Positions 3,957-25,979 of a DNA stretch of 26,478 nucleotides are shown here, in pieces. Below the pieces are notes generated by a model. That model ran no database searches and was not told the origin of the DNA. It was given only the letters and a program-made list of their open reading frames with translations. A program made the translations under genes and the position numbers. Each line of letters opens with the position of its first letter. Position 1 is the first letter of the stretch. Origin of the DNA: a virus (taxonomy: Duplodnaviria; Caudoviricetes). Where the stretch lies: positions 1 to 26,478 of the IMG/VR virus record IMGVR_UViG_3300016265_000156, one strand, 5' to 3'.

Positions 3957-4114
3957 GTTTCGTGCTGATGATCGAGCAACGAACGCCAAGCGGTGTGTGG
4001 CGAGTAACTACCGCAGCAGGGGCCGGGCCAAAGCCAGTATAGGGTTTGTACGTTTACCTATATATGACCTCCTACCCGGTGACCCTGCGTTTTAACCACG
4101 AAGGAGCTAAACCA
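3957..4114 (+). ncRNA. Structured 5' leader / candidate cis-regulatory RNA
   Basis: Three consecutive stems: 3957-3984; GCGGTG/TACCGC at 3990-4014; and a long stem GCAGGG-GCCGGG/CCCGGT-CCCTGC at 4016-4088 with inner GTATAGG/CCTATAT. CCTCCT lies in an internal loop. Confidence 0.55.
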
Positions 4115-4510
4115 ATGAGTGATACGTCAGTGAATCAGCTGGCCTCTATCTACCTCAAGATACGTGATGAGCGGGAAAAAATAAAAACCACGTACGAAGA
4201 GGAAGATAAAAAGCTAGCTGAGCAGATGGCTGTTGTCGAAGCCGAAATGCTAGAGGTGTTCAGGGACACCGAGTCTACTAGCATCAAGACCCCTACTGGT
4301 ACCGTCATGCGCCGTGTAGCTACACGCTACTGGACTAATGACTGGGACACCATGTACAACTTCATCCGAGACAATGATGCGTATGGTTTGCTTGAACGCC
4401 GTATCCATCAAACTAATATGAAACAGTTCTTGGAAGAGAACCCTGATCTATACCCACCCGGCATGCTCGCCGATAGCCAATATAAGATAACCGTAAGGAG
4501 AAGCAAATGA
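4115..4510 (+). CDS. Conserved-looking phage replication-region protein (coiled coil plus small alpha/beta domain), function unknown
   Basis: Strong SD AAGGAG (4101-4106) supports ATG 4115 over the TTG at 4046; 131 aa; N-terminal charged helix; ATGA overlap with next gene. Confidence 0.85.
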   Translation: MSDTSVNQLASIYLKIRDEREKIKTTYEEEDKKLAEQMAVVEAEMLEVFRDTESTSIKTPTGTVMRRVATRYWTNDWDTMYNFIRDNDAYGLLERRIHQTNMKQFLEENPDLYPPGMLADSQYKITVRRSK

Positions 4511-5412
4511 GCAACGAAGTTTCCATATTCAAGAACCGTGACGTAGCTGTCGCCGGAAAGAAAGCACCCAGCGCACTGACCCAGTCGCTGATGAAAGCAA
4601 CGCGCATGAAGCGCATCTCGCCGCGTAACGGTAAGTTTGTGCGTGTAGTCAACGGTGATGTAGCAGGTAAGTTCAACGCCCCGCTGCGTGTAGTGCTGGT
4701 AGGTGTAGCTCAAGCCACGGCACAGCGCACCTTCTATATCAAAGCCTATGACCCCAACGCCGAGGCAACCGCGCCTGACTGCTGGTCGAACGATGGTAAC
4801 AAGCCAGACGCCAGCATCAAGAACCCACAAGGCAAGACCTGCGAGACATGCCCACAGAACGTAAAGGGTTCCGGTCAGGGTAGCACCCGCGCCTGCCGCT
4901 TCGAGCGCCGCGTAGCTGTCGTGCTGCCAGACGAGGTAGGTGGCAACAACCACGGTGATATATACCAGCTGCGCCTAGCGTCGAAGTCTATCTTTGGCAA
5001 AGGTGTAGGCCAGCTGTTCCCGCTGAATGCCTACATCGACTACGTTATTGCTAACGGCGAGAACATCGACGGCGTGGTTACCGAGCTGAACTTTGACGAG
5101 GACGACAATCAGGTTGTGCGCTTCCGCGCTGTGGACTTCGTAGGTAGCCATCCTGACCTGCAAAATGTGGTCGATGAAGCTGTGGCCTCGCCAGAAGCAC
5201 TGAAGGCTGTGACGCTGACCGTTGCCGCTGTCGATAAGGGCGAGGACGACAATGAGGAATTTGAGAATGCGCCGAAGGCTGTTGCGCAGGAAGAAGAGGC
5301 TAGCCCCGATATTTCGGAGCCTACGAAGCGAGCGAGCAAGAAACCGACGCCAGCACCTACGACGGGCAAGAGTCTGGCTGACGTTGTTGATGCGTGGAGC
5401 GCTGACGACTAA
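4507..5412 (+). CDS. Putative ssDNA-binding/annealing protein with Cys4 metal site and acidic tail
   Basis: SD AAGGAG; CWSNDGNKPD...CETCPQN...RACR; acidic/Pro-rich tail ending DAWSADD; located between helicase and primase; followed by a terminator. SSB function is inferred. Confidence 0.65.
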   Translation: MSNEVSIFKNRDVAVAGKKAPSALTQSLMKATRMKRISPRNGKFVRVVNGDVAGKFNAPLRVVLVGVAQATAQRTFYIKAYDPNAEATAPDCWSNDGNKPDASIKNPQGKTCETCPQNVKGSGQGSTRACRFERRVAVVLPDEVGGNNHGDIYQLRLASKSIFGKGVGQLFPLNAYIDYVIANGENIDGVVTELNFDEDDNQVVRFRAVDFVGSHPDLQNVVDEAVASPEALKAVTLTVAAVDKGEDDNEEFENAPKAVAQEEEASPDISEPTKRASKKPTPAPTTGKSLADVVDAWSADD

Positions 5413-5442
5413 ATGACTTCTCGCGCCGCGCCATGCGGCTTC

Positions 5443-5469
5443 GGGAGGGGGCAACCCCTCCCTTTTTTT
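5443..5469 (+). terminator. Rho-independent terminator
   Basis: GGGAGGGG-GCAA-CCCCTCCC (8-bp stem, GNRA loop) followed by T7. Confidence 0.9.
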
Positions 5470-5480
5470 CCGAGTTAAAA

Positions 5481-8312
5481 ATGGCTAACTTCGACTTGTT
5501 AGATACAGTACTTGCCCCCGAGGGGTGGTACGCCGTGGTAGGTATCAAAGGCAAGAAAGTTGACCAGCACCTTGTAGAGACTAGAGAAGAGGTAAACGAT
5601 TTAGTCGAAGAGCTTATATCTCAGAATTATGATGTGTACTTTGGCTGTGCCAAATATGCAACGGGGGAGAACCGCACCAAGGACAACGCTACCTACTTCA
5701 AAGCACTGTGGGTAGACATAGATTGCGGTGAGGAGAAAGCCGCTTCCGGTGATGGCTACATAGACCAAACCACCGGGCTACAAGAGCTGCAACGCTTCTG
5801 CAAAACCATCGGGTTGCCCAGACCCGTCGTCGTAAACTCTGGGCGCGGTATCCATGCCTACTGGCCTTTTTCCGAGGTGGTGGGTAAGGACAAGTGGGTG
5901 CCGATGAGCGACCGGCTTAAAGAGCTGTGCCGCATCCATGAGCTGTTAGTAGACCCTGCATGCTTTGAACCCGCGCGCATCCTGCGGGTGCCGGAGACTT
6001 TGAACTTCAAGGACACGCCGCCCTCTCCGGTTAGCGTGATAGCTGGAGCCAACGCTACTGATCCCGGTGAGCTACACACTACGCTGGGTGTTACAGAAAA
6101 GAAATTTACCCCGCGTCGGCAGGTACAGCGCAGCGCCCTGACTATGTCTTTGATGGGCAACCGCATCTCTAAGTTCAAGACGATTATGCTGAAGTCTGTG
6201 AACGGCGAGGGCTGTAACCAGCTACTACATTGCTATCAGAATCAGGATTCTATTAGTTATAACCTATGGCGTAGCGCTCTATCCATAGCCGCGTTCTGTG
6301 AGGAAGGCACCACAGCTGCCCACAAGATGTCGGAGAACTACCCCGGCTACGACCCGGAAGAAGTAGAAATAAAAGTACAAGACCTGCAGCGCAAAGGCGG
6401 CCCACATTTTTGCGAGACGTTCGAAAAAGAAAACCCCGACGGGTGCGACGGTTGCCAGCACAAAGGCAAGATCACTACACCTATTACGTTAGGTAAAGAG
6501 ATAGCCCGTGCTGAAGAGACTGAGGAAGGCACCTACGAGGTTGAGGATGAAGAAGAGCAGGTTTCTTACAGTATCCCATCGTTCCCGTTCCCCTACTTCC
6601 GTGGCAAGACTGGCGGCATTTACCGGTCAAGCCCCGAGGATGACGAGCCCGTGCTGATCTATGAGCATGATCTGTACGTGGTCAAGCGCATGAAAGACCC
6701 AGAGATAGGGGAGGTTGCGTACATCCGGTTGCACCTGCCACAAGACGGCGTCAAGGAATTCACGATGGCCGCTAGTGCTTTGTTAGGAAAAGACGAGCCT
6801 AAGAAGTTGCTGGGGCAGCACGGTGTCATCGGGCACAAAGGGCAGATGGACAACATTGTAAGTTTTTTGGTCAGCTCCATTAAAGACATACAACTATCAA
6901 AGAAGGCAGAGATCATGAGAACACAATTTGGCTGGGCGGATAACGACAGTAAATTTATCATCGGCGACCGCGAGGTCACGGCAGACAACGTCTACTACAG
7001 CCCCCCATCTACGCACACCGCAAACATCGCGCAACACATGGTGCCCCGAGGGTCGTTAGAAAAATGGAAAGAAGTATTCAACATGTACTGCCGCCCCGGT
7101 CTGGAGGCTAATGCGTTTGCTGCACTTACTGCGTTTGGCTCCCCGCTGCTGAAGTTCATGGGGTTGAGCGGGGCCATCATCAACGTCATCTTCAAGAACT
7201 CTGGTAGCGGTAAGTCCACCACGTTGTACATGTGCAACAGCGTCTGGGGGCACCCACATAAGCTAGCCTCCATCCCTAGCGATACCATGAACGCCCGTAT
7301 GCACAAGCTGGGCGTGATGAACAACCTGCCCTTCACCATGGACGAGATCACGAACATGAAGGCTGAGGACTTCTCTAACATGGCCTACGCTATGTCGCAG
7401 GGGCGGGGCAAGGACAGACAGAAGGCGTCGGCTAACGAGCTGAGGGCGAACAACACCACGTGGGGCAACATATCTTTAACCTCAGGCAATGCTAGCTTCT
7501 ACGAGAAACTTGCCAGCTTGAAGGACAGCCCGGATGGGGAGCGCATGCGCTTGGTCGAGTACGAGATCGGCTACAGCGACGCTGTATCGCTGGGAGAAGG
7601 CAAGCAGATGTTCGACCATCAGCTACTGGAAAACTACGGTCTAGCTGGCGAGGTATACGCACAGTGGCTGGTCGGCAACAAAGAGTCTACCATTGAGCAA
7701 TTGCTGGAAGTACAAGCCAAGATCGACAAAGAGCTGCGCCTGACTCAGCGCGAGCGGTTCTGGTCCGGGGTGGTTGCATGCAACATCATGGGTGGGCTGA
7801 TCGCTAAGTCGCTGGGGCTGCATGACTACGACATGAAGGCTGTGTACCGCTGGGCATGCGAGATGATACGTGACATCCGCAAGGACAATGAAGCGCCTGT
7901 AGACGACGCGGCTGGCATCATCGGTGACTTCATCAACCGCCACATGCGCAACATTCTGGTCGTGGACGGTGAGGCTGATGCTAGGACTAAGATGGCACCT
8001 GCTCCGATCATGGAGCCCTACGGCGAGCTTATCATCCGCTACGAGCCCGACACCAAGCGCATGTACATCGTGAACAAAGCGTTCAAGAACGACTGCGTGG
8101 AGAGACAAGTTAACTACAAGCACACCCTAAGAGAGCTGCATGACAAAGGCATCTACAAGGGCAGCACCACAAGGCGCATGACTACAGGCACCAAGATTAA
8201 AGGCCCGCCTGTGCATGTGATGGAGTTTGACTGCAACACCCCTGAGTTCATTAACGTAGATACTTACGTGGAGAGCGCAAGTGAGGATAGAGGGCGTCAG
8301 CTTCCAAATTAA
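5481..8312 (+). CDS. Primase-helicase: AEP (RepB'-like) primase, Cys-rich helical domain and DUF927/AAA+ helicase
   Basis: WVDID, SGRGIHAYW and RILRVP AEP motifs; Cys cluster HFC...GCDGCQH; QFGW (DUF927-type); Walker A SGSGKST; Walker B TMDE. Start at 5481 is preferred because ATG 5433 lies upstream of the terminator. Confidence 0.88.
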   Translation: MANFDLLDTVLAPEGWYAVVGIKGKKVDQHLVETREEVNDLVEELISQNYDVYFGCAKYATGENRTKDNATYFKALWVDIDCGEEKAASGDGYIDQTTGLQELQRFCKTIGLPRPVVVNSGRGIHAYWPFSEVVGKDKWVPMSDRLKELCRIHELLVDPACFEPARILRVPETLNFKDTPPSPVSVIAGANATDPGELHTTLGVTEKKFTPRRQVQRSALTMSLMGNRISKFKTIMLKSVNGEGCNQLLHCYQNQDSISYNLWRSALSIAAFCEEGTTAAHKMSENYPGYDPEEVEIKVQDLQRKGGPHFCETFEKENPDGCDGCQHKGKITTPITLGKEIARAEETEEGTYEVEDEEEQVSYSIPSFPFPYFRGKTGGIYRSSPEDDEPVLIYEHDLYVVKRMKDPEIGEVAYIRLHLPQDGVKEFTMAASALLGKDEPKKLLGQHGVIGHKGQMDNIVSFLVSSIKDIQLSKKAEIMRTQFGWADNDSKFIIGDREVTADNVYYSPPSTHTANIAQHMVPRGSLEKWKEVFNMYCRPGLEANAFAALTAFGSPLLKFMGLSGAIINVIFKNSGSGKSTTLYMCNSVWGHPHKLASIPSDTMNARMHKLGVMNNLPFTMDEITNMKAEDFSNMAYAMSQGRGKDRQKASANELRANNTTWGNISLTSGNASFYEKLASLKDSPDGERMRLVEYEIGYSDAVSLGEGKQMFDHQLLENYGLAGEVYAQWLVGNKESTIEQLLEVQAKIDKELRLTQRERFWSGVVACNIMGGLIAKSLGLHDYDMKAVYRWACEMIRDIRKDNEAPVDDAAGIIGDFINRHMRNILVVDGEADARTKMAPAPIMEPYGELIIRYEPDTKRMYIVNKAFKNDCVERQVNYKHTLRELHDKGIYKGSTTRRMTTGTKIKGPPVHVMEFDCNTPEFINVDTYVESASEDRGRQLPN

Positions 8313-8475
8313 CTGGAAACAATTCAAGAAGGGGCACTCGTTCTTTTTACCCTGCTTAAATTGTTACACGACAACCGACATGGTGAAGAAAGTTACAAAG
8401 CGCCTGAAATACAACGTGGTAACTAAATGTGTTATCGAAGATGGTATACGGGGTGTACGTGTATGGAGAATATGA
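8281..8475 (+). CDS. Small basic protein, possible nucleic-acid binding
   Basis: 64 aa, GTG start after GGAG; F-K-K-G-H-S-F-F...GVRVWR pattern recalled from small phage proteins. Confidence 0.7.
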   Translation: MRIEGVSFQINWKQFKKGHSFFLPCLNCYTTTDMVKKVTKRLKYNVVTKCVIEDGIRGVRVWRI

Positions 8476-8481
8476 TATAAA
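8473..8481 (+). promoter_or_regulatory. Putative extended -10 promoter for the candidate sRNA
   Basis: TG-A-TATAAA overlaps the stop codon of 8281-8475 and lies 4 nt before the first hairpin; no convincing -35. Confidence 0.45.
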
Positions 8482-8485
8482 GCAC

Positions 8486-8569
8486 CTGACGGCGTTGTTA
8501 GCTCCTTCGTCGTCAGTCTCCTTTCGTGGTTACACGATAGTTCCCCCGGCTTAGTCCGGGGGTTTTTTT
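8486..8569 (+). ncRNA. Candidate trans-acting anti-Shine-Dalgarno small RNA
   Basis: Stem CTGACGGCG/CGTCGTCAG with loop TTGTTAGCTCCTT; linker TCTCCTT; hairpin TCGTG-GTTA-CACGA; terminator. 8498-8510 is the exact reverse complement of 4098-4110. Confidence 0.65.
8543..8569 (+). terminator. Rho-independent terminator ending the + strand module/sRNA
   Basis: CCCCCGG-CTTAGT-CCGGGGG followed by T7; no U-tract on the - strand side. Confidence 0.9.
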
Positions 8570-11500
8570 ATTCTTTCGCCTCGTCCAGTATTTTTTGTAG
8601 CGCCTTCTCACGCAGCTGCTCTTCCGCAATATTTTCTTCAGTAAGCTCTCTACCACGCAGCTTAATCTTGTCTAGCTTACCTTCAAACGCATCGTCTAAA
8701 GTATCAGGCGTGATCTCCCAACCTTCTCGTGGGTACATCAAATTAAATTCATAAACCCTACGCGAAGCGTTTTCTATAAGTTCCTCATCCCCGCGACGCA
8801 TAGCCTTGACCCACGCGTTTACGATAGCTTGCTTCCTATCTTCAATCTTTCGTTCTTCTTTCTTCAGGAAGGCGTTAAGGTCTTGAATTTCAGCCAGCCC
8901 TGAGGTTTTAAAGCCTAGCCCCTGCATAACTAACTGCCCCGCCGTAAACTCTTCTGCTTCACGGATAGGGTCTAGGTCTTTATCCAACACGCCTTCCGTG
9001 CTGTAGCGATATGCCACTGCGGGGGAACGAAGCATCTTCATTGGTATCCAACGCTCCATTGCTTTTAGCGTGTCGCCTTCTGACCACTCTCTATATGCTT
9101 GCGCTGTCATTTGATTAACAAGGCCAGCAAACGGAGCTATGTTATTGAACGTCATGAAGTCAGCTAGAGCGTTCATGTCAAATTCATTCGGTAAGTCACG
9201 GAACCACAGACCACCTTCAGATATACCAGACGACAGGTTTATACCCGTGAACGCGTCCAGAAGCCCGTTAGCTAGAGCATCTGCTATCCTTACATCTGTG
9301 CCCGGTATTTTTGCGTCACCAAAAGTTTCAGGTAGCCATACGTTGTTGAACCACCGTACGATGTTCAGCTGAGATATATCAACTGCTTCTGGGTCATCTT
9401 CATACAGGTTGTTAATAGCGGCTTGCAAAACACCGAACATCCACATCATTGTGCTAACACCAAACGCACCAGCCACCCCAGCGCCTAACGCGCCCATCAT
9501 CATAGAACCAAAGAAAGCATAGGCCGCGCCTTTACGTACGTCCGACGGCAGGCTGCCTGTCATCTCCTTAAAATTCATGTAGTAGTAGAACGTGGTGTAC
9601 AACGAGTATTTCTTAAACTGAAACGCCAGCCTAGCGATGGGCTGGTTAAGGAACGGTGGAGACTCGTCTGGTAAATAGCGGTATAGCGCTTCTTCAGTAA
9701 TATTTTGCGCGTTGTCCACCGCCTCCATAGGCGACATACCTTTTTGCCTAGAAAGTTTATACGCCGTCAAGAACGTAATTTCTCGGGCTATACGCTCGCT
9801 GCCTTGGTGCAAAGAACCTGATACACGTACCATAGTGTCTAGCACTACTTCAGGCGTGGACATAGTTTTAGCTTTGTTGCCAAAGTACAGGTCAGCTGTT
9901 TGCGTAGACTGGTCAGAGATTTGCCGTAAATCCATCTGTCGCACGGCGAACTGAAGCTCAGCGGGGGTAAGCCCCGTTAGAAGCTGCGCAGCTTTAGGGC
10001 TACGTGTTACCAGAGAAGAGCCAAAAGAGGGGAATGTATATTTAACATTACCTGCGCTGTCTACCCGTTTTACCCCTACCTGCGCTGGCATAGCAGCTAG
10101 CAGTTTTGTAAGCTCTTTAGTTGCTGCTACAGGACCAAAATATTTAATGAGTGTAGGGAATGATTTACCCGGTACACCCCATACGTTATTGAACACCGCC
10201 CGCATATCTGTAAGCAGATACATGAACGTAAACTTAGTCGCAGCATTTACAACCTTATCCAGCATGCCGGGTTCTTGCGGTTGCGCGTATGAACCGTTGG
10301 TACGTCTTTCTAGTTCGTTGATGAGCAGCTCTAGGCGGTCACGCTTAGGGTTGTCACGGATGTTTTCCTGTGCAGCATCAAAGTTATTGTTAACCTGCTG
10401 TAAGTACCGCATCTTTGCCAGCTGGTTTGCCATGCGCGTACCAGTCGAGATGAAGTTACGCAGCGCGTCACGAGAATAACCTGCCCGTGCTTTACGGGTG
10501 ATAAACATCTTGCGCATGCTGTTCTCAGGCAGCACAAGCAGCATAGACTGAAAAATATCATTTTTAAGCTGGTCTACAGCCGCAGTAGAACCTAGCGCAA
10601 CAGCGTCTATTTTTGAAAAAATATTACGTAACGCGATATTCTCTTTAGCAATTTTCTTACGCAGCACTTCTGCTTCGTTACCTTTAGCAGCTTCTTTAGC
10701 AATTACAAGCTCTTCGTAAGTGCGTTTGTCTCCGCGCTTGTTACGTTCTTTTATTTGCTGCTTTATGAATTTGTCCCGTTGTTTGGCGCTGTCAAACATT
10801 TGGAAGTTTACATCTTTGCCTTTACCAAACTGAGCCCAGAATTCACCGTGGCGCATCAAAGGAAAATACGGCCCCTTACCCATGTTGCGTTCATAGGTAG
10901 TCTTTAAGTCCTCCCACAGCTTACCTTTGGGGGTAGTAGGGTCGTTAATACTTCCAGCTAAGTTTGATGTAGCTATCTTCTGCTTGAGTGTAGTGAGGAA
11001 CAGCTGATAGCTTTGCTTGTAAAAGTCTCGTGCGTTTTTATAAAGCTTCTGTTGTTTGGGGTTTAACGCATTCCACATGCGGTTTAGTTCCGGCACTGTG
11101 GTGTTAACAGATGGGTCTACTTGTATGTCAGTAGACAAATTCATAATATCCGCCAGTGCGTCTTTTTCTTTCCTACCAAGTTTTGCCCATTCTGTAGCTA
11201 TAGCTGTCATAGCGTTCATGGCATTTACACGGAAGGTGCCCATCTTGCGCGTGTTATCCCTAGCGTCTTTTAAACTCTGTATGCCATTTGCAATACCTAT
11301 ACGGTAAAGCACACTAGTAGGCGCTACCTTAATAAACGACTTAAGGAACGCCATGTCCAAGTTAGGGAACGCAGCGCTGACGTAATCACCTAAAGCTTTT
11401 GGCGTACGCCCAGCACTTTGCACGGGGCCTATACGTTGAATAACCTGCCGGGCGTCCTGAGACGCTTTGAGGTCGCGTATTGCCGTGTTTACATTTTTAA

Positions 11501-14500
11501 CTTGGCGTTTAGCCTCTAGTATAGATTTAGTGATGTCCTCGCCAAAGGCGGCTTCCATCTGCTCTATGCTAGGCTGCTCAGCTTTCATAATCTCGTGCGA
11601 GATAAGCACGAGGTCTTTTAGCCCGGACTTTAGCTTAGGGTCTATACCAAATAGTTTCAGCAAGGCGTCAATAAAAATATCGAAGCCTGACTTCTTCTCC
11701 GATACGCCTTTGACTTCATTCAACAAAAACTGCTTCATCGCAGCGTTCGTCATACCGTAGGCGTAAAACTCTTGAATGTCCGTAAAAGCATCTGCTTCAG
11801 CGGCAAACTTTAGTTCTGCGTTTACGCTCTTCTTGCTGTCATACGCTGCCTTTGCGCGTACCATCAAATCTTCTAGCGCGTTCACTGCCTCGACAAGGTT
11901 AGCTTCAACCTCCATGCCGTTACTGCGCGCTGCTAGGACAAAATCTATTTTCTTACTGCCAGATACGTGCATAGCTTCATGGAGCACGATCTCGTTGTTA
12001 ATACCTTGGTTCTCGTAGCTATCCCCGCGTACATACACCGTGCCACCTACGGTGGTAGGAGAAAACATACCAACAGTGCCTTTGTTTAGCATCTGTTTAG
12101 CAGTTTTGTCTTTTAGTTTGGTGTCTCTATCTACGACAACAAAATTAACATTACGCAACGTAGGCGCGTTGTCCCGCTGCAACAGACGTGCAGCCAGCAT
12201 GGCTTCCAGCTCGTTAGGCGACTGGGCTATCTGTATCAATGCACCAGCTATTGTGTCTACGTCGTAGAAGCCCAGATCAGGTTCCATGTCTAGCTGCTGC
12301 TCAGCTAGGTACTCAGGACCTTTTCTACGGCGCGCGGGTAAAGCGCGCATACCACGGCGCTCTACCGGTTTTTCTTCTCGTATGGCGGCTACTTCTTCCT
12401 TGCGTTCTTCTTTAGGCGCTGTGGGTGGTACCTTCTCGGTCACCGTTTTTGTAACAGGCGCAACCTGCTGACGCACAATATCTTCAGCTACAGCTGCCTT
12501 GCCGTTGATAAAGTCCATGGTATGCGCTGGGTTTTCAGGCACCACAAACATTTTTGCGCCGTCTATTTGGTTTTCGTGCCCTGCTAGTAAGTTTCCGTAC
12601 ACCCCTTTAGGTACATTTATGCAGCCAAAAGAGTAACGTGAATCTAGTGGGCCGGGTTTCTCCAGCGCAGCCAGACGCTGCTTAGCATCTTTCTCTTTAG
12701 TCCATACGGAATGAAACAGCGTGACTGAGTACTCACCGTCTATGGCTTTGTCCAGCACAAACACTTTGCCGTAATCGTATGCGCCTGCTGTCTTGGCTTC
12801 GCTACCCCCACGTGCTGCGTCACGCAGCCCAAGGTTAAATAGCCCAGCAGGAGTGATACGGTTTTGTACTACCTCAGTATTACCACGGTAAAAATCACCC
12901 ATGGTTTTACCAAGCAGCACTTTACTTTGTGTAAGCAAAGAACCGTCGGGGTTAAATACGTACAGGTTAGCACTGGGTTTGTCTGTAATGATAAACAGTT
13001 TGTTAGTAGCTTTAAGCCCTTTTTCAACTGCTGGGTATATGGTGGCGTAAGCCTGACGACCACCTTCAGACATACCTACAACATCGGCAGGGACCGTAGC
13101 TCTAACTTGTACAGTGCGTGATAGCGTAGTGGGGGTGGCTACAGGTATAGTAGGCGTTATGAACGAAGTGTTTACCACCATGATAGCGGCTAACATACCT
13201 GCCTGTAGACGCTTGATAATGTCGTGCAGAACCCTAGAGACTGCATCCAGCCCCTCGTTCATTGCCTTTACTACATCTTCAACAAACTTACGTTTAGCAA
13301 CCTCGTTGTAAGATGTTTCGCCGTAGTGCTCAGCAATAACGGCCTTATCTTCGTCGTCTAGCTGGTCATGTATAGCAGCGTCTTGCAGCTCTTCCTGCGC
13401 GTCACCTACAGGCTCTTCCTCTAACATAGTTGCGGCTCTATCCGCTTTAGACATCGAGCTTCTTAGTAGCTGAGCGTTATAGTCTGTCCACCGTGTTTTC
13501 TCTTCAGGCGCTTTTTCTTTTTCACGGGCAGCTTTACCTTTTTCCTCCCACAACCCCTGATACTCAGCAAGCCATAGTGGCGTACCAAAAGCTTCCGTGA
13601 CTGGGCGAAGCACGGGTTTTAGTTCTTCTTTTACTTCTGTTTCCTTAGCTGGCCGCGCTTTCTTTACAGGTTCAGCAACAACTTCTTCTTCCGCTGCTCT
13701 TATTTTTTCTATAGCTTTTTTGCGTTGCGCAGGAGAGGACAGTGTAGTTGGTAAAGGCGGCAGCGTAGTATAGTCTTCGCGTTTCTCAGCCAGCGCTTTG
13801 GCACGTTCTTGCTCCGCAGGCTTTAAACTCTTTATGTATTTGCCAGCTTGTGCGTAAGCAACAATAGGACGAGACTTAAATTTTTGCGCTTTTTTATACA
13901 GTTCTGCGCGCAATGTTTCTATAGATAAATCCCGCAATGCTTCACGATAAGCTTTTTCTTCTGCGGTACGAGCTGCTATACCAAAAAAATCACCAGTAGT
14001 GCTACGCTCTAATTTACGTACGGCACTAATTTCGGCTAGCGTATCTCTGGTAAGGTTAATAACATCGGCAGCTTGTTCTACACGCTCTGCCCCAGTCTTA
14101 GCAGCTTCCGATACTTCACGTCCACCACCCGGAGCGCGTCTACGAGGCTCACCCGCAGCCGTAGCACCAAACTCCGCAATGAGCTGCTGCTTTAGTTTTT
14201 CAGGCGATGTTCTAGCTACGGTGTCTAAAATAGACGGGTCAACCTCTAGTTCTTCTTTACGCCCAGCTTCTAGTTCGAGGGGTGCGGCTGCCTCGGTGGG
14301 TTGCGCTGGTCTTTCCTCTTTTGCTTTGACGGCTTTAGGGGCTTCAGGGCCACGGGGTTCCTCCTTAGTGGTGGGGTATGTTTTTTCACGAGGCACAGGA
14401 AATGGAACAATATCACCTGTTTCCCCAACAAGAGTAGTAGGCCAATTTTGTTTATAGTCAGGACTTTCAGGGTCTTGTTGTTCAGACCAACGTATATTGC

Positions 14501-17054
14501 TACGCAACTCAACAGGAATAGTGGTATACCCTAGCGCTTTTAACGCACGAGCACGATGCCGCCCTTCATGCCCAGTTACTTTGGCGCTACCTTCTGAGCC
14601 AACCTCAATATATAAATATGGGACTCCAGAAAACTTCCCGTCTTCAGAAATTATCTTTTGTACCCGTGCTTCTTTATCTGGCCTTGAACCGGGAACGTCG
14701 CGTTCAGCCAACTTTAAGAACTCATCAATCGGCATTTGAACAAGCTTATTTTTGCCTTTGCGTGGCGTCACAGCTACTTTTTCAACCCCTTCAAACCAAG
14801 CTTCAACAGGTTTTTCTTTTACAGGCTGAACAGCTTTAGGAACAACAGGTGCTTCCACCGCTTCGGTAGGGGCAGCTTCAACAGCTGGCTCAACACGTTC
14901 CTCGGGTCTTTCTCCCACCATCGGAGCAGCAGGCGCGCGACGTTCAAAAGCAGGACGAGCGTCACGAGGAGGCAGTCCACCAAGTTCTTCCAGTCGAGCA
15001 TAAGCAGCCTCTTGATATGCTTCAGGTGTAGGGTTAGTAGCTAGAGTGTCTCGCACCCAGCTAGCACCAAGGGTAAGGCCAAGATCAGGGTAAGGCTCTC
15101 TAGCAAACCCACGGGATATCGCACGTTCTGCAAGTTCTTGCTGTTCTACTAGTGCAGCACGTTCCAGCTCTTCTCTTCCAGCAAGTTGTCTAACAGCGCT
15201 GCTAGCAGCACCCAGTCCTCTATCGATAGGGGTTGTAGGTAGCTCGGCGGCTCCAGCCTCTGCGCTAGGCACAAAAATGCCTCGCTCATCTGTGCTTGGC
15301 TCAGTGACAAAAGGTGGCGGCTCGGTCGTGGGAACATTGTCTCCCTCCATTTGAAGTGCGGCGCGTTCAGCCCGCCCGGCCATAGTCCGCGCTTCATCTT
15401 CAGCGGACTTACGTTGGATAACTCTACCTTCTGCCTCTGTAACAGGTGGCTGTAAAGCTTGGATATCAGTCTGTGCCTGAGTTTGAGCTTGTTCAGGCGG
15501 CATGCCTTGTTCTTGGTACGACTGCGCCAAAGCCTGCACACGAGGGTCAGTGGGCTCTATCTCTAGTTCAGGACGACGTGCTGCCTCCAGCGCGGTCAAC
15601 GGAGGACGTGCAGGTTCACCTTCTAGCTCTACACGACGCGCTTCTTCTAGCGCAGTCAGCCTAGGTCTATCTGATTGCAGGTAAGAATTTACATCCTGCT
15701 GTATAGCATCTGCCAGCGCGAAGTCAGGGCGCGCCTCTTGTATCTTCTCGATACCTTTACTGAGTACTTTAGAGCCCCCAGCCATCAGGCCAGACTGCAT
15801 CAAAGTCTGCACCGTGGTGTCGCCCACTTGCTGCAGGTAGTCGCCAAATGTGGCGTTGGGTGAAAGACCGACAGAAGATAGGTCAGTTAAGAACTGCCCC
15901 GTGGTTGTAAGGATTTCACCGGGTAGCTCGCGCTTCAGGGTATTGCCAAGCCAGCCTTTGAGCACGTCGTTAGACATACCTTGCGTAGCCTGTCTGATCT
16001 TGTCCATCTGAAACTTAAGACCAAACTTCTCTCCGACCACTTCAAAGGCGGCGTACAACCCTGCACGAGTAGCTGCTGTAGCACCTCCCAGACCTTTAGC
16101 CGTACCTTCTGCGTACTCCTGACCAAACGATTGCGCAAACATTGACGCCAGCACAAGCCCTTCAGAGCCGGTCGCTACACCCCCAACAAGAGCAGGCAGC
16201 TGTTGGGCTATGGAATTAATTGCGCCTTCAAACATGCGCCCGGCATACACCGGGTTCTCGCCCATAGACTGCACGACGTTCCGGGCTTCGGCAGCACGCT
16301 CACCAAACCTAGTAGCAAACTCATCCGCATTCAACAGGTCAGCTACAGCTTGGTTAATACCCAGTGCACCTTGCTTGTACCCCTGCCATCCAGCCATCGC
16401 GCCACGCAAAACAGGGTTAGCGTTTTTGTACTGGTTGTAAATATCAAAATCAAATTTGGTGGGTTCTAGTGCGCCTTCGGCTTGTATAGCTTGCACTTCT
16501 TTACCCGGCACGACGCCCATCTCGGCAGCGCGCTGTGCCGCAGCACGAGCAAACTCAGGCTTCTCACCTTGCTGGATAAGACGTTGTGTACGTTCCTCGG
16601 CGGCTGGGGATAGGCGCGCAGCGGCCTCAGGTGTTCGCTCTGCCCGTTTATATTCTTGTGCCCGCTGGCGTATGACATCACCCACCGCACCGGGAGCCTT
16701 CTCCATGTTGGCGCGTTTCTTGGGTGAGGCAGCATCGTATTCTGCTTCAATAGCAGCACGAACTTCAGGGCGTAGAGGGGCTTTGCTAGGAGTTTGAACA
16801 GGCGCAGCGGGAGTTTTGCCGCTCATTACGCCCAGACCTTCCCCTGCCTGACTCATGATGGCAGAACCTAAGTCCTCCCCCATAGGTGACGTAGTAGCAA
16901 AGTCTTGCCTCGGCTTCTCTGCTTTTTTAGGTTCCGGCTTAGGCTCTGCTTTTGGGGTAGGCAGCTGTTTCAGCGCAGCAGCCATGTCGTCCCGACTCAT
17001 ACCGTCGGGGAACTCTACGGTACCTACACCTTCTACCTCAACATACTGTGCCAT
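8568..17054 (-). CDS. Giant internal virion/ejection protein of large polyvalent type with ParB/Srx-like, L,D-transpeptidase and zincin-like domains
   Basis: 2828 aa; last gene of the structural module. HEGRHR at 14553-14570; H...SFGC at 12711/12621; HEAMH at 11967-11981 with downstream QEFYAY. Gly/Ala-rich hydrophobic segments near both termini; helical C-terminal region. Confidence 0.85.
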   Translation of the reverse strand: MAQYVEVEGVGTVEFPDGMSRDDMAAALKQLPTPKAEPKPEPKKAEKPRQDFATTSPMGEDLGSAIMSQAGEGLGVMSGKTPAAPVQTPSKAPLRPEVRAAIEAEYDAASPKKRANMEKAPGAVGDVIRQRAQEYKRAERTPEAAARLSPAAEERTQRLIQQGEKPEFARAAAQRAAEMGVVPGKEVQAIQAEGALEPTKFDFDIYNQYKNANPVLRGAMAGWQGYKQGALGINQAVADLLNADEFATRFGERAAEARNVVQSMGENPVYAGRMFEGAINSIAQQLPALVGGVATGSEGLVLASMFAQSFGQEYAEGTAKGLGGATAATRAGLYAAFEVVGEKFGLKFQMDKIRQATQGMSNDVLKGWLGNTLKRELPGEILTTTGQFLTDLSSVGLSPNATFGDYLQQVGDTTVQTLMQSGLMAGGSKVLSKGIEKIQEARPDFALADAIQQDVNSYLQSDRPRLTALEEARRVELEGEPARPPLTALEAARRPELEIEPTDPRVQALAQSYQEQGMPPEQAQTQAQTDIQALQPPVTEAEGRVIQRKSAEDEARTMAGRAERAALQMEGDNVPTTEPPPFVTEPSTDERGIFVPSAEAGAAELPTTPIDRGLGAASSAVRQLAGREELERAALVEQQELAERAISRGFAREPYPDLGLTLGASWVRDTLATNPTPEAYQEAAYARLEELGGLPPRDARPAFERRAPAAPMVGERPEERVEPAVEAAPTEAVEAPVVPKAVQPVKEKPVEAWFEGVEKVAVTPRKGKNKLVQMPIDEFLKLAERDVPGSRPDKEARVQKIISEDGKFSGVPYLYIEVGSEGSAKVTGHEGRHRARALKALGYTTIPVELRSNIRWSEQQDPESPDYKQNWPTTLVGETGDIVPFPVPREKTYPTTKEEPRGPEAPKAVKAKEERPAQPTEAAAPLELEAGRKEELEVDPSILDTVARTSPEKLKQQLIAEFGATAAGEPRRRAPGGGREVSEAAKTGAERVEQAADVINLTRDTLAEISAVRKLERSTTGDFFGIAARTAEEKAYREALRDLSIETLRAELYKKAQKFKSRPIVAYAQAGKYIKSLKPAEQERAKALAEKREDYTTLPPLPTTLSSPAQRKKAIEKIRAAEEEVVAEPVKKARPAKETEVKEELKPVLRPVTEAFGTPLWLAEYQGLWEEKGKAAREKEKAPEEKTRWTDYNAQLLRSSMSKADRAATMLEEEPVGDAQEELQDAAIHDQLDDEDKAVIAEHYGETSYNEVAKRKFVEDVVKAMNEGLDAVSRVLHDIIKRLQAGMLAAIMVVNTSFITPTIPVATPTTLSRTVQVRATVPADVVGMSEGGRQAYATIYPAVEKGLKATNKLFIITDKPSANLYVFNPDGSLLTQSKVLLGKTMGDFYRGNTEVVQNRITPAGLFNLGLRDAARGGSEAKTAGAYDYGKVFVLDKAIDGEYSVTLFHSVWTKEKDAKQRLAALEKPGPLDSRYSFGCINVPKGVYGNLLAGHENQIDGAKMFVVPENPAHTMDFINGKAAVAEDIVRQQVAPVTKTVTEKVPPTAPKEERKEEVAAIREEKPVERRGMRALPARRRKGPEYLAEQQLDMEPDLGFYDVDTIAGALIQIAQSPNELEAMLAARLLQRDNAPTLRNVNFVVVDRDTKLKDKTAKQMLNKGTVGMFSPTTVGGTVYVRGDSYENQGINNEIVLHEAMHVSGSKKIDFVLAARSNGMEVEANLVEAVNALEDLMVRAKAAYDSKKSVNAELKFAAEADAFTDIQEFYAYGMTNAAMKQFLLNEVKGVSEKKSGFDIFIDALLKLFGIDPKLKSGLKDLVLISHEIMKAEQPSIEQMEAAFGEDITKSILEAKRQVKNVNTAIRDLKASQDARQVIQRIGPVQSAGRTPKALGDYVSAAFPNLDMAFLKSFIKVAPTSVLYRIGIANGIQSLKDARDNTRKMGTFRVNAMNAMTAIATEWAKLGRKEKDALADIMNLSTDIQVDPSVNTTVPELNRMWNALNPKQQKLYKNARDFYKQSYQLFLTTLKQKIATSNLAGSINDPTTPKGKLWEDLKTTYERNMGKGPYFPLMRHGEFWAQFGKGKDVNFQMFDSAKQRDKFIKQQIKERNKRGDKRTYEELVIAKEAAKGNEAEVLRKKIAKENIALRNIFSKIDAVALGSTAAVDQLKNDIFQSMLLVLPENSMRKMFITRKARAGYSRDALRNFISTGTRMANQLAKMRYLQQVNNNFDAAQENIRDNPKRDRLELLINELERRTNGSYAQPQEPGMLDKVVNAATKFTFMYLLTDMRAVFNNVWGVPGKSFPTLIKYFGPVAATKELTKLLAAMPAQVGVKRVDSAGNVKYTFPSFGSSLVTRSPKAAQLLTGLTPAELQFAVRQMDLRQISDQSTQTADLYFGNKAKTMSTPEVVLDTMVRVSGSLHQGSERIAREITFLTAYKLSRQKGMSPMEAVDNAQNITEEALYRYLPDESPPFLNQPIARLAFQFKKYSLYTTFYYYMNFKEMTGSLPSDVRKGAAYAFFGSMMMGALGAGVAGAFGVSTMMWMFGVLQAAINNLYEDDPEAVDISQLNIVRWFNNVWLPETFGDAKIPGTDVRIADALANGLLDAFTGINLSSGISEGGLWFRDLPNEFDMNALADFMTFNNIAPFAGLVNQMTAQAYREWSEGDTLKAMERWIPMKMLRSPAVAYRYSTEGVLDKDLDPIREAEEFTAGQLVMQGLGFKTSGLAEIQDLNAFLKKEERKIEDRKQAIVNAWVKAMRRGDEELIENASRRVYEFNLMYPREGWEITPDTLDDAFEGKLDKIKLRGRELTEENIAEEQLREKALQKILDEAKE
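15553..15668 (-). repeat. Degenerate 60-bp tandem duplication inside the giant ORF
   Basis: RPRLTALEEARRVELEGEP / RPPLTALEAARRPELEIEP; the nucleotide match at period 60 is visible. Confidence 0.85.
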
Positions 17055-25488: not shown

Positions 25489-25979
25489 TTCTTCATCAGC
25501 TCCTTGGTCTTGTCCTTGCTACTTTGGCTAGAACCAAAGAAGAAGTTCAGCATCGTTGACACTACCGTGCCCATGATGAAACCAAGGATTACATCTACAA
25601 ACCGCACACTCTTCTCTGGAATATCTACCAGAGTAATTACCATGATGTAAGCCACGGCAAACGCTGACCAGAACCAAGCGAACTGATACACGAACCGGCG
25701 CACCCACGGGTCGGCATTCTCCATCGCCTTCTCCTGCATATCCCGTGCATCCTGCGTGTTCTTCAGGTCAATCTCTGCCATGAACTCCGCATGTTTCATC
25801 GCAGCCATTTGTAAATCTGCGAGCTTGGAATCGTCAAGTACGCCATCTTCATTGGGCGTCAGTTTGATACCCAGCTTCTCCTCAACATGCTCAACACCCT
25901 TGTCCAGCACGGCATCAGCAACCTTCTGGAGTCCGGCACCGGCTAACTGAGACAGGATAGGGGCTAGTAACGGGATCAT
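25485..25979 (-). CDS. Putative holin
   Basis: Amphipathic N-terminus, D..DAR.MQ motif, two TM helices, ending NFFFGSSQSSKDK; immediately upstream of the endolysin with ATGA overlap. Confidence 0.75.
   Translation of the reverse strand: MIPLLAPILSQLAGAGLQKVADAVLDKGVEHVEEKLGIKLTPNEDGVLDDSKLADLQMAAMKHAEFMAEIDLKNTQDARDMQEKAMENADPWVRRFVYQFAWFWSAFAVAYIMVITLVDIPEKSVRFVDVILGFIMGTVVSTMLNFFFGSSQSSKDKTKELMKK

Follow-up and report, generated by a model that had tools for sequence, protein, structure and literature searches.

The window, meaning the whole stretch of DNA analysed here (26,478 nucleotides), is a 26.5-kb phage fragment with a + strand block on the replication side and a - strand late block. 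The + strand block carries genes for DNA polymerase A, a PD-(D/E)XK exonuclease and an SNF2 helicase, genes 4115 and 4507, a DUF927 primase/helicase gene and a gene of 64 aa, and the - strand block carries virion, ejection and lysis genes. Throughout, gene starts were called with a simple purpose-written script, and 'early' and 'late' were assigned by inference from strand and gene content. Gene 4115 gave weak, below-cut-off matches of the Mu Gam, Gp157 and DUF7307-like kind, and its stop codon overlaps the start of gene 4507. The initial annotation had called gene 4507 an SSB, a name that we do not retain: its matches were to unnamed PHROGs only, with no Pfam family. The conserved 64-aa gene, which ends the replication-side block, had no Pfam or PHROG match and falls in unnamed viral clusters. 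The features of the junction and of its predicted targets lie at the following window positions:

858-867, + strand: second label copy, matching over 10 nt, where gene 874 (114 aa) starts
4093-4110, + strand: main predicted target site, the Shine-Dalgarno (SD) sequence of gene 4115 and its flanks
4115-4510, + strand: target gene 4115, 131 aa, phrog_13900
5481-8312, + strand: DUF927 gene, primase/helicase-like, lying between target 4115 and the small RNA within the same block
8281-8475, + strand: conserved 64-aa gene
8454-8459, + strand: weak -35-like hexamer
8473-8481, + strand: extended -10 element
8486-8516, + strand: hairpin 1
8488-8569, + strand: predicted small RNA (sRNA)
8498-8510, + strand: seed module 1, antisense to the start label of the window phage, AAGGAGCTAA
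8517-8537, + strand: seed module 2, a single-stranded TCTCCTT plus hairpin 2 (8524-8537), antisense to the upstream flank TAACCACGAAGGAG
8543-8569, + strand: intrinsic terminator, a stem (8543-8562) followed by T7
8568-17054, - strand: large virion/DarB-like protein gene, 2828 aa, of the convergent late block, ending at the junction

The 64-aa (+) and 2828-aa (-) genes converge on an intergenic gap of 92 bp (8476-8567). The extended -10 element, TG-A-TATAAA, overlaps the stop codon of the 64-aa gene, whose last codons (G-L/V-R) hold the -35 region of the putative promoter, at a spacer of 16 nt in the window phage. With +1 inferred at 8488, 7 nt after the -10 box, transcription would yield an RNA of 82 nt whose first hairpin displays seed module 1 in a 13-nt loop and whose terminator has its U-tract on the + strand only. 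The stem of hairpin 1 (8486-8494/8508-8516) includes one G-U pair and would be 7 bp long if transcription begins at the inferred +1; opening the loop part of module 1 costs 1.0 kcal/mol. The fold of the region gave a z of -4.4, and of -3.6 without the terminator. Apart from the G-U pair and the shorter stem, the gap, the -10 element, stem 1, the TCTCCTT segment, hairpin 2 and the terminator all lie where the initial annotation had placed them. The + strand promoter of the sRNA was missing from the output of a consensus promoter scan, so that relatives provide its support. As sequence motifs only, the junction has the promoter of its own, the intrinsic terminator and the 3'/intergenic position of an sRNA gene, and the unit is likely to be transcribed as a ~80-nt trans-acting sRNA.

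Both pairings reported in the initial annotation were recovered. Module 1 is the exact reverse complement, over 13 nt, of 4098-4110 (duplex -21.5 kcal/mol), and 8518-8532 forms a 14-bp duplex with 4093-4106, interrupted by one bulge (-19.9 kcal/mol). When both CTCCTT cores were fixed and the flanks shuffled, a match of at least 13 nt to any of the 20 called window starts arose in 546 of 100,000 shuffles; the 13-nt match thus exceeds chance even with both anti-SD cores held constant. It was absent from the longest pairs of a repeat finder. The proposal that two modules act on the 4115 ribosome-binding site (RBS) stands insofar as both pair with it, but they overlap on the target (4098-4106), and they are therefore alternative seeds and not a two-point clamp. 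With accessibility included, the 4115 site ranks first among the 20 window starts, by a margin of less than 1 kcal/mol over three others, and the corresponding site of the relative G001 ranks fourth among 44 starts. The sRNA unit lies 4.4 kb downstream of 4115, its nearest main target. On the late side, the best-scoring site is a one-mismatch label at the endolysin start (25496-25505, - strand; -9.4 kcal/mol). Across 118 distinct leaders, a -10-like motif (43 motif matches) peaks 31-35 nt upstream of the start of the 4115 homolog, which suggests that the target operon has a short-leader promoter of its own; no promoter was called upstream of 4115 in the window.

Relatives were collected in two sets. 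The first comprised 160 locus rows found via the 4115 protein and the primase, of which 94 had the 64-aa gene as well as a 4115 homolog and yielded 76 different junctions; 2 of these junctions were discarded as truncated. A profile search contributed 80 more viral and 5 MAG loci, and this second set came to 68 distinct junctions once re-found, truncated and duplicate rows were removed. By estimate, the short peptide patterns of the marker gene occur in about 1600 viral stretches. Complete relatives measure ~61-74 kb, and several have direct terminal repeats; their early side includes AAA-ATPase and VWA/metallopeptidase genes. Neither a tyrosine integrase (PF00589) nor a serine-recombinase (PF07508) domain was found in five relatives (three complete, two partial), the scanned proteins gave no antirepressor or CI-type match, and the MAG contigs searched contained no prophage relative. 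Because the matching MAG contigs were short and their labels mixed, no host was assigned. The group is apparently lytic, and plasmid-like lysogeny may occur; its habitat was inferred from contig context and aquatic runs only. No close relative in culture was found: Pseudomonas phage Rollin shares 29% primase identity, and its convergent genes overlap, leaving no gap.

Defined as a -10 box just past the stop codon, a pyrimidine-rich anti-SD segment and a + strand terminator, the unit is present in 112 of the 129 related loci that form the rows of the primase tree, and 15 of the 17 rows without it form a single clade. In 86 of 102 junctions the stop is followed by a TAnAnT -10 motif (family consensus TAnAcT), compared with 30 of 1170 stops elsewhere. 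A TTGCGN -35 box stands at a 17-nt spacer in 48 of 96 junctions, inside codons of the upstream gene, and the Leu codon at the -35 is TTG in 59 of 78 cases against a usage of 20%; the -10 and -35 rows are mutually related, so these counts are not independent trials. The TG extension occurs in only 10 of 96 junctions, the window among them. The terminator with its + strand U-tract is kept in relatives, and a GC hairpin plus U-tract was found in 48 of the 68 added junctions and was absent in 20. In the window clade, the first stem begins within -3 to +3 of the inferred +1 in 15 of the 15 members shown, and the stem sequence of hairpin 1 varies around a nearly invariant loop. Anti-SD cores have an unpaired probability of 0.81, compared with 0.51 for the remaining body (n = 86), and CTCC or TCCT occurs in 101 of the 112 unit-bearing rows, both being missing in 11. 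Between the window phage and the relative G002, the RNA body is ~89% identical, compared with 189 of 331 primase fourfold sites (57%). RNAalifold, run on a MAFFT alignment of 11 clade members, returned a meaningless structure because the stems slide, and stems were therefore read sequence by sequence in place of its consensus.

The 17-nt loop matched 17 stretches in viral contigs, mostly known family junctions; the matches in L330 and L340 came without the marker gene and were set aside, and the 16 exact matches in MAG contigs were at chance level. A second recurrent loop motif, GCAGTTGC, occupies the first hairpin of 17 of 115 rows (e.g., L137, L139, L107, L159, L234, L226 and L260). One genome without the unit, G053 (L379), has a 19-bp palindrome just upstream of the RBS at five early genes and a sixth copy ahead of a terminator with no gene (L379 positions 183, 2376, 3643, 4535, 5642 and 7206). 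Found in 1 of 385 loci, this arrangement looks like an operator or leader-hairpin regulon in place of the sRNA.

The initial annotation had proposed comparing the loop with the 4115 leaders of related phages, and the complementarity proved to be conserved and to co-vary there. Ranking targets by the duplex energy of the whole body over all starts proved too noisy, and seed-limited and longest-helix measures were used instead. Across 18 sequence clusters, the RNAs pair better with the RBS of their own 4115 homolog than with foreign ones (-20.5 vs -16.6 kcal/mol, p ~1e-5), but the own 4115 site came first among targets in only 5 of these clusters and ninth or worse in 7. A replication in six clusters dissimilar to the first set (the dissimilarity filter retained 9 of 41 loci) placed the own target at ranks 1, 1, 1, 2, 1 and 1 (p = 0.0016). 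In tree-independent pairs at a distance of at least 0.3, own combinations prevailed over swapped ones in ~19 vs 4 of ~25 pairs (30 random drawings) and, by longest helix, in ~20 vs 1; at distance 0.1 the split was 20 vs 10 of 35. The perfect match to the 4115-homolog RBS is at least 9 nt long in 51 of 112 rows and at most 6 nt in 44, and an accessible seed that is conserved or co-varies with a distant RBS was found, though not in all clades.

Several of these pairings extend beyond the SD or involve a non-canonical one (L293, L221/L239, L068/L070, L299, L261/L286 and L230/L248). L293 combines an 11-bp SD helix with a 14-bp upstream helix, the RNAs of L221/L239 pair with an AGAGGTA label, and those of L068 and L299 with AAGGAAA labels. 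The claim that the sRNA is aimed at 4115 is strongly supported by conservation and covariation, but not as an exclusive assignment: there are several targets, and module 1 is invariant in L006, L008 and L111 although their 4115 leader no longer matches it. L003 and L054, near-identical phages with near-identical RNAs, differ in their 4115 leader, and L003 retains only a 9-nt match; judged from this pair of sequences, targets can be gained or lost quickly.

The seeds also match the starts of other early genes. The initial annotation had predicted a further gene with the same leader, and such a gene is the AAA-ATPase gene of G001 and G002, ~22-23 kb from the sRNA unit. In G002 the AAA-ATPase start gives the best match, 18 nt, and in G001 the leader of this gene fits both modules. 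By gene family, covariation was strongest for several + strand genes. Across the 24 first-set contigs, 45 of 662 early and 4 of 506 late starts can form a 9-nt helix with the RNA of their own phage, compared with 25.5 early and 4.6 late starts for foreign RNAs (p = 0.019); in 9 of the 24, not one early start reaches 9 nt. A second sample of 14 genomes was selected by length, excluding 4 near-duplicates and setting 3 unit-less genomes apart; here the own RNA matched 52, 35 and 20 of 545 early starts at 9, 10 and 11 nt, and foreign RNAs matched 17.4, 8.2 and 3.9 (p = 5e-5). The targets in this set were the 4115 homolog in 11 of 13 genomes, DUF3310 in 5 of 10, AAA in 4 of 13 and VWA in 4 of 13; some of its 4115 pairs overlap those of the six-cluster replication. 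By predicted pairing, the 4115 homolog is the most consistent target.

Short labels recur at early starts. In G037, 10 starts share a single label, and in G033 another label is found at 6; in both genomes the own seed matches it. G049 has no early start with a 9-nt match. GGAGCTA stands at 40 of 677 + strand starts, against 4 of 506 on the - strand. A 9-mer recurs at three or more early starts in 25 sRNA-bearing genomes; in 9 of these 25 the own RNA is complementary to the most frequent early 9-mer, with 3.0 expected. One label, that of the seed GTTAGCTCC, is common to 32 of 115 rows across distant clades. In G042 (L377), a 98% complete genome without the unit, we found seven early-gene copies of a long start label, all in early orientation and often running into identical first codons, and neither a reverse label copy nor a detectable antisense unit. 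Labels therefore need not be caused by the RNA, and the RNA may have adapted to pre-existing labels. G002 also has an early-side cluster of glycosyltransferase (GT2, GT10) and methyltransferase genes (L161:361-4149), one gene family of which showed seed covariation.

Four of 15 RNA runs (X5, X6, X7 and X1) were used and provided assembled contigs only, without strand or end information and spread as DNA would be. In X5 a 251-nt contig at depth 7.25 spans 8419-8669; X5 contigs cover 25 of 30 bins, so this one is uninformative on the sRNA.

The anatomy of the unit, its conservation, seed-label covariation across the family and an early-side bias of the matches are direct observations. From the comparison of sequences, the unit is real and widespread, and it is probably a functional sRNA gene that recognises a self-specific RBS label. 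An RNA paired over an SD keeps 30S subunits from loading. We propose that a host sigma-70-type promoter within the upstream gene would make the RNA from DNA entry onward, that transcripts reading through from the replication block may supplement it, and that it would accumulate as time passes and genome copies increase. The loop-exposed seeds would then pair with the phage-specific label at the RBSs of several early genes and block translation, occluding the SD of 4115, the AAA-ATPase, VWA/metallopeptidase, DUF3310 and other early genes; coupling from 4115 to 4507 is plausible because the stop codon of the former overlaps the start of the latter. Late genes, mostly without the label, would stay translated, and the outcome would be RNA-only negative feedback or early-to-late damping. 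We have considerable confidence in the antisense-RNA mechanism, and the balance tips modestly in favour of this mechanism and the feedback or damping purpose taken together. A lysis/lysogeny immunity role, as suggested by the initial annotation, gained no support: with no integrase or recombinase domain in the five relatives and no prophage relative found, lysogenic immunity is doubtful and feedback damping of early translation likelier. More tentatively, and with clear reservations, the system could be an 'address-label' regulon in which early genes share a private extended RBS read by one antisense RNA, a protein-free global repressor whose specificity diverges like that of immunity groups and serves both timing and kin exclusion; this would also explain the start-associated sequences of cluster K mycobacteriophages discussed below.

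Kin exclusion is the main alternative purpose. The RNA of a resident phage would silence the early translation of a same-label newcomer, and labels would diverge to escape the RNAs of relatives. Labels do differ by clade, and in G037 and G033 several genes shift together with the seed, which is hard to obtain by drift alone; but an arms race predicts more diversity than is seen in GTTAGCTCC, shared as it is by distant clades, and no integrase or prophage was found in the five relatives or the MAG contigs. A host-type promoter would fire without phage factors, and the phage antisense RNAs STnc6030 and sas are described as acting in superinfection exclusion (PMC12197685). On this evidence we regard exclusion or immunity as unlikely to be the main purpose.

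The remaining explanations are less likely. A generic anti-SD RNA directed mainly at host mRNAs (host shut-down), with secondary phage matches, would account for the CTCC or TCCT cores in 101 of 112 rows, for the many rows that match no phage start well, and for an architecture like that of ncS16 (E = 0.063, below threshold) and the double-hairpin RNAs (PMC5688073). It leaves the covariation of non-SD flanks with the own phage leaders unexplained, and we consider it improbable.

The junction could also be a mere 3' UTR and terminator in which an inverted copy of the short start repeat is held similar by recombination or conversion and serves no regulatory pairing. The labels of G042 without an antisense unit fit this neutral account; the G-U asymmetry counts, 3 v 2 in one test and 7 v 5 in a second (p = 0.13), do not discriminate between strands. 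Against the neutral account stand the -10 and -35 elements conserved at fixed spacing, stems that begin at the inferred +1 and change in sequence around an invariant exposed loop, and an RNA body that changes more slowly than synonymous sites, all of which make neutral copying quite improbable. Least probable of all is a functional - strand, the 3' tail of the late transcript acting either as a minigene or, through GGA loops, as a decoy that draws off CsrA/Rsm or a phage translational repressor: covariation alone is strand-blind, the - strand reads as RBS mimics in loops, an SD plus ATG occurs on it in 25 of 102 junctions and in 6 of 18 clusters it gives the body the better fold, but promoter and U-tract both face the + strand, no start codon follows GGAG in the window or in 77 of the 102 junctions, and the + strand folds better in 11 of the 18 clusters. 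The putative + strand assignment accordingly rests on promoter and terminator orientation.

An antisense RNA that reads early-gene labels would be a new arrangement of known chemistry. Through it, phage gene timing or exclusion would gain a post-transcriptional layer, and it offers a family-wide comparative case in apparently lytic phages, with one sRNA set against a self-specific RBS label on many genes. The natural seed-label pairs form a ready orthogonality panel and would supply natural orthogonal sRNA/RBS parts.

We further compared the element with known systems. Rfam 15 gave no match at gathering threshold in the window, in agreement with the initial annotation, which had recognised no named family; at 12 relative loci there was no match at the junction and one elsewhere, int-alpA at L068:4663-4730, just above threshold. 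The best sub-threshold match was ncS16 (20.8 vs 48 bits, E = 0.063). We found no published description of the element in the literature, and the four of nine supplementary files of the Fremin 2023 catalogue (PMC10690425) that were searched contained no match; the catalogue may list the element as an anonymous candidate. The Burkholderia double-hairpin 'toxic' sRNAs (RF02278; ncS03/05/27/62), ncS16 and Neisseria NmsR are described as chromosomal regulators of host metabolism (PMC5688073). Like the window RNA, they are reported there as 50-90 nt long, with a hairpin, one or two unpaired CU-rich anti-RBS stretches and a terminator, and ncS16 similarly has its own start within a 3' UTR (PMC5688073). 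The window RNA differs in being phage-encoded, in a seed that co-varies with start labels of its own phage, and in giving no covariance-model match.

In position, the element resembles OppZ and CarZ of Vibrio cholerae, in which an sRNA from an operon 3' end is described as pairing with its own transcript and inhibiting translation (PMC7398697). Genes 4115-8475 are likewise co-oriented and closely spaced, with the sRNA unit at their 3' end, and are inferred to be co-transcribed. OppZ and CarZ are, by the same account, RNase E-processed and operon-limited (PMC7398697), whereas the window unit has a conserved internal promoter and predicted targets up to ~23 kb away. The conserved promoter motifs argue for primary transcription over RNase E processing.

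P1/P7 c4 and P4 CI are phage antisense RNAs that silence genes of their own phage, and c4 acts via two short elements in which changes alter specificity. P22 sar is described as a further phage antisense RNA (PMC12197685). These are immunity elements of temperate phages, within or overlapping the operon that they regulate, each acting on one antirepressor transcript, whereas the window RNA is predicted to be multi-target, ends in a terminator, and comes with no integrase in the five relatives scanned and no Rfam model match; we found no temperate repressor/antirepressor circuit among the scanned proteins, and the unit neither lies in nor overlaps the regulated leader. VpdS of VP882 and PreS of lambda are phage-encoded trans-acting sRNAs, as is predicted for the window RNA; they differ in that mainly host mRNA targets or Hfq competition are described for them, in belonging to temperate phages, and in having no shared self-label (PMC12197685). 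In the part available to us, the 2025 review of phage sRNAs presents nearly all known examples as coming from a few temperate model phages, mostly with single or host targets, and describes no multi-target self-label system (PMC12197685).

The nearest likeness to the labels is the start-associated sequence (SAS) of cluster K mycobacteriophages, described as a 13-bp motif in 11-19 copies that forms a phage-specific extended RBS at non-structural gene starts in one orientation, with one reverse-orientation copy away from gene starts (PMC3203893). That account leaves the SAS binder open between RNA and protein and, as far as it is available to us, proposes no antisense RNA (PMC3203893). The labels of the window family are likewise extended RBSs repeated at non-structural starts in one orientation; they differ in being 9-13 nt long, in up to 10 copies and clade-specific, with the reverse copy inside a promoter-terminator unit. 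By sequence they are unrelated to SAS and would be an analog, not a member. The 30.8 kb of Anaya (L303) that we examined holds 15 forward copies and 1 reverse copy of SAS. The reverse copy is intergenic, and its locus (L303:29760-29990) is matched in 182 mycobacteriophage records, some of which annotate a hypothetical gene there. In seven aligned reverse-SAS loci (L303, L304-L309), a TAGACT box is invariant and a hairpin persists although its sequence has changed; three of the loci retain an intact anti-SAS, two have a degenerate one and two have lost it. By analogy, the reverse-SAS locus is a candidate for a comparable sRNA, offered as a lead only. An antisense reader of early-gene labels thereby offers a testable explanation for the cluster K start-associated sequences, and the question of their binder can be addressed in cultured phages.
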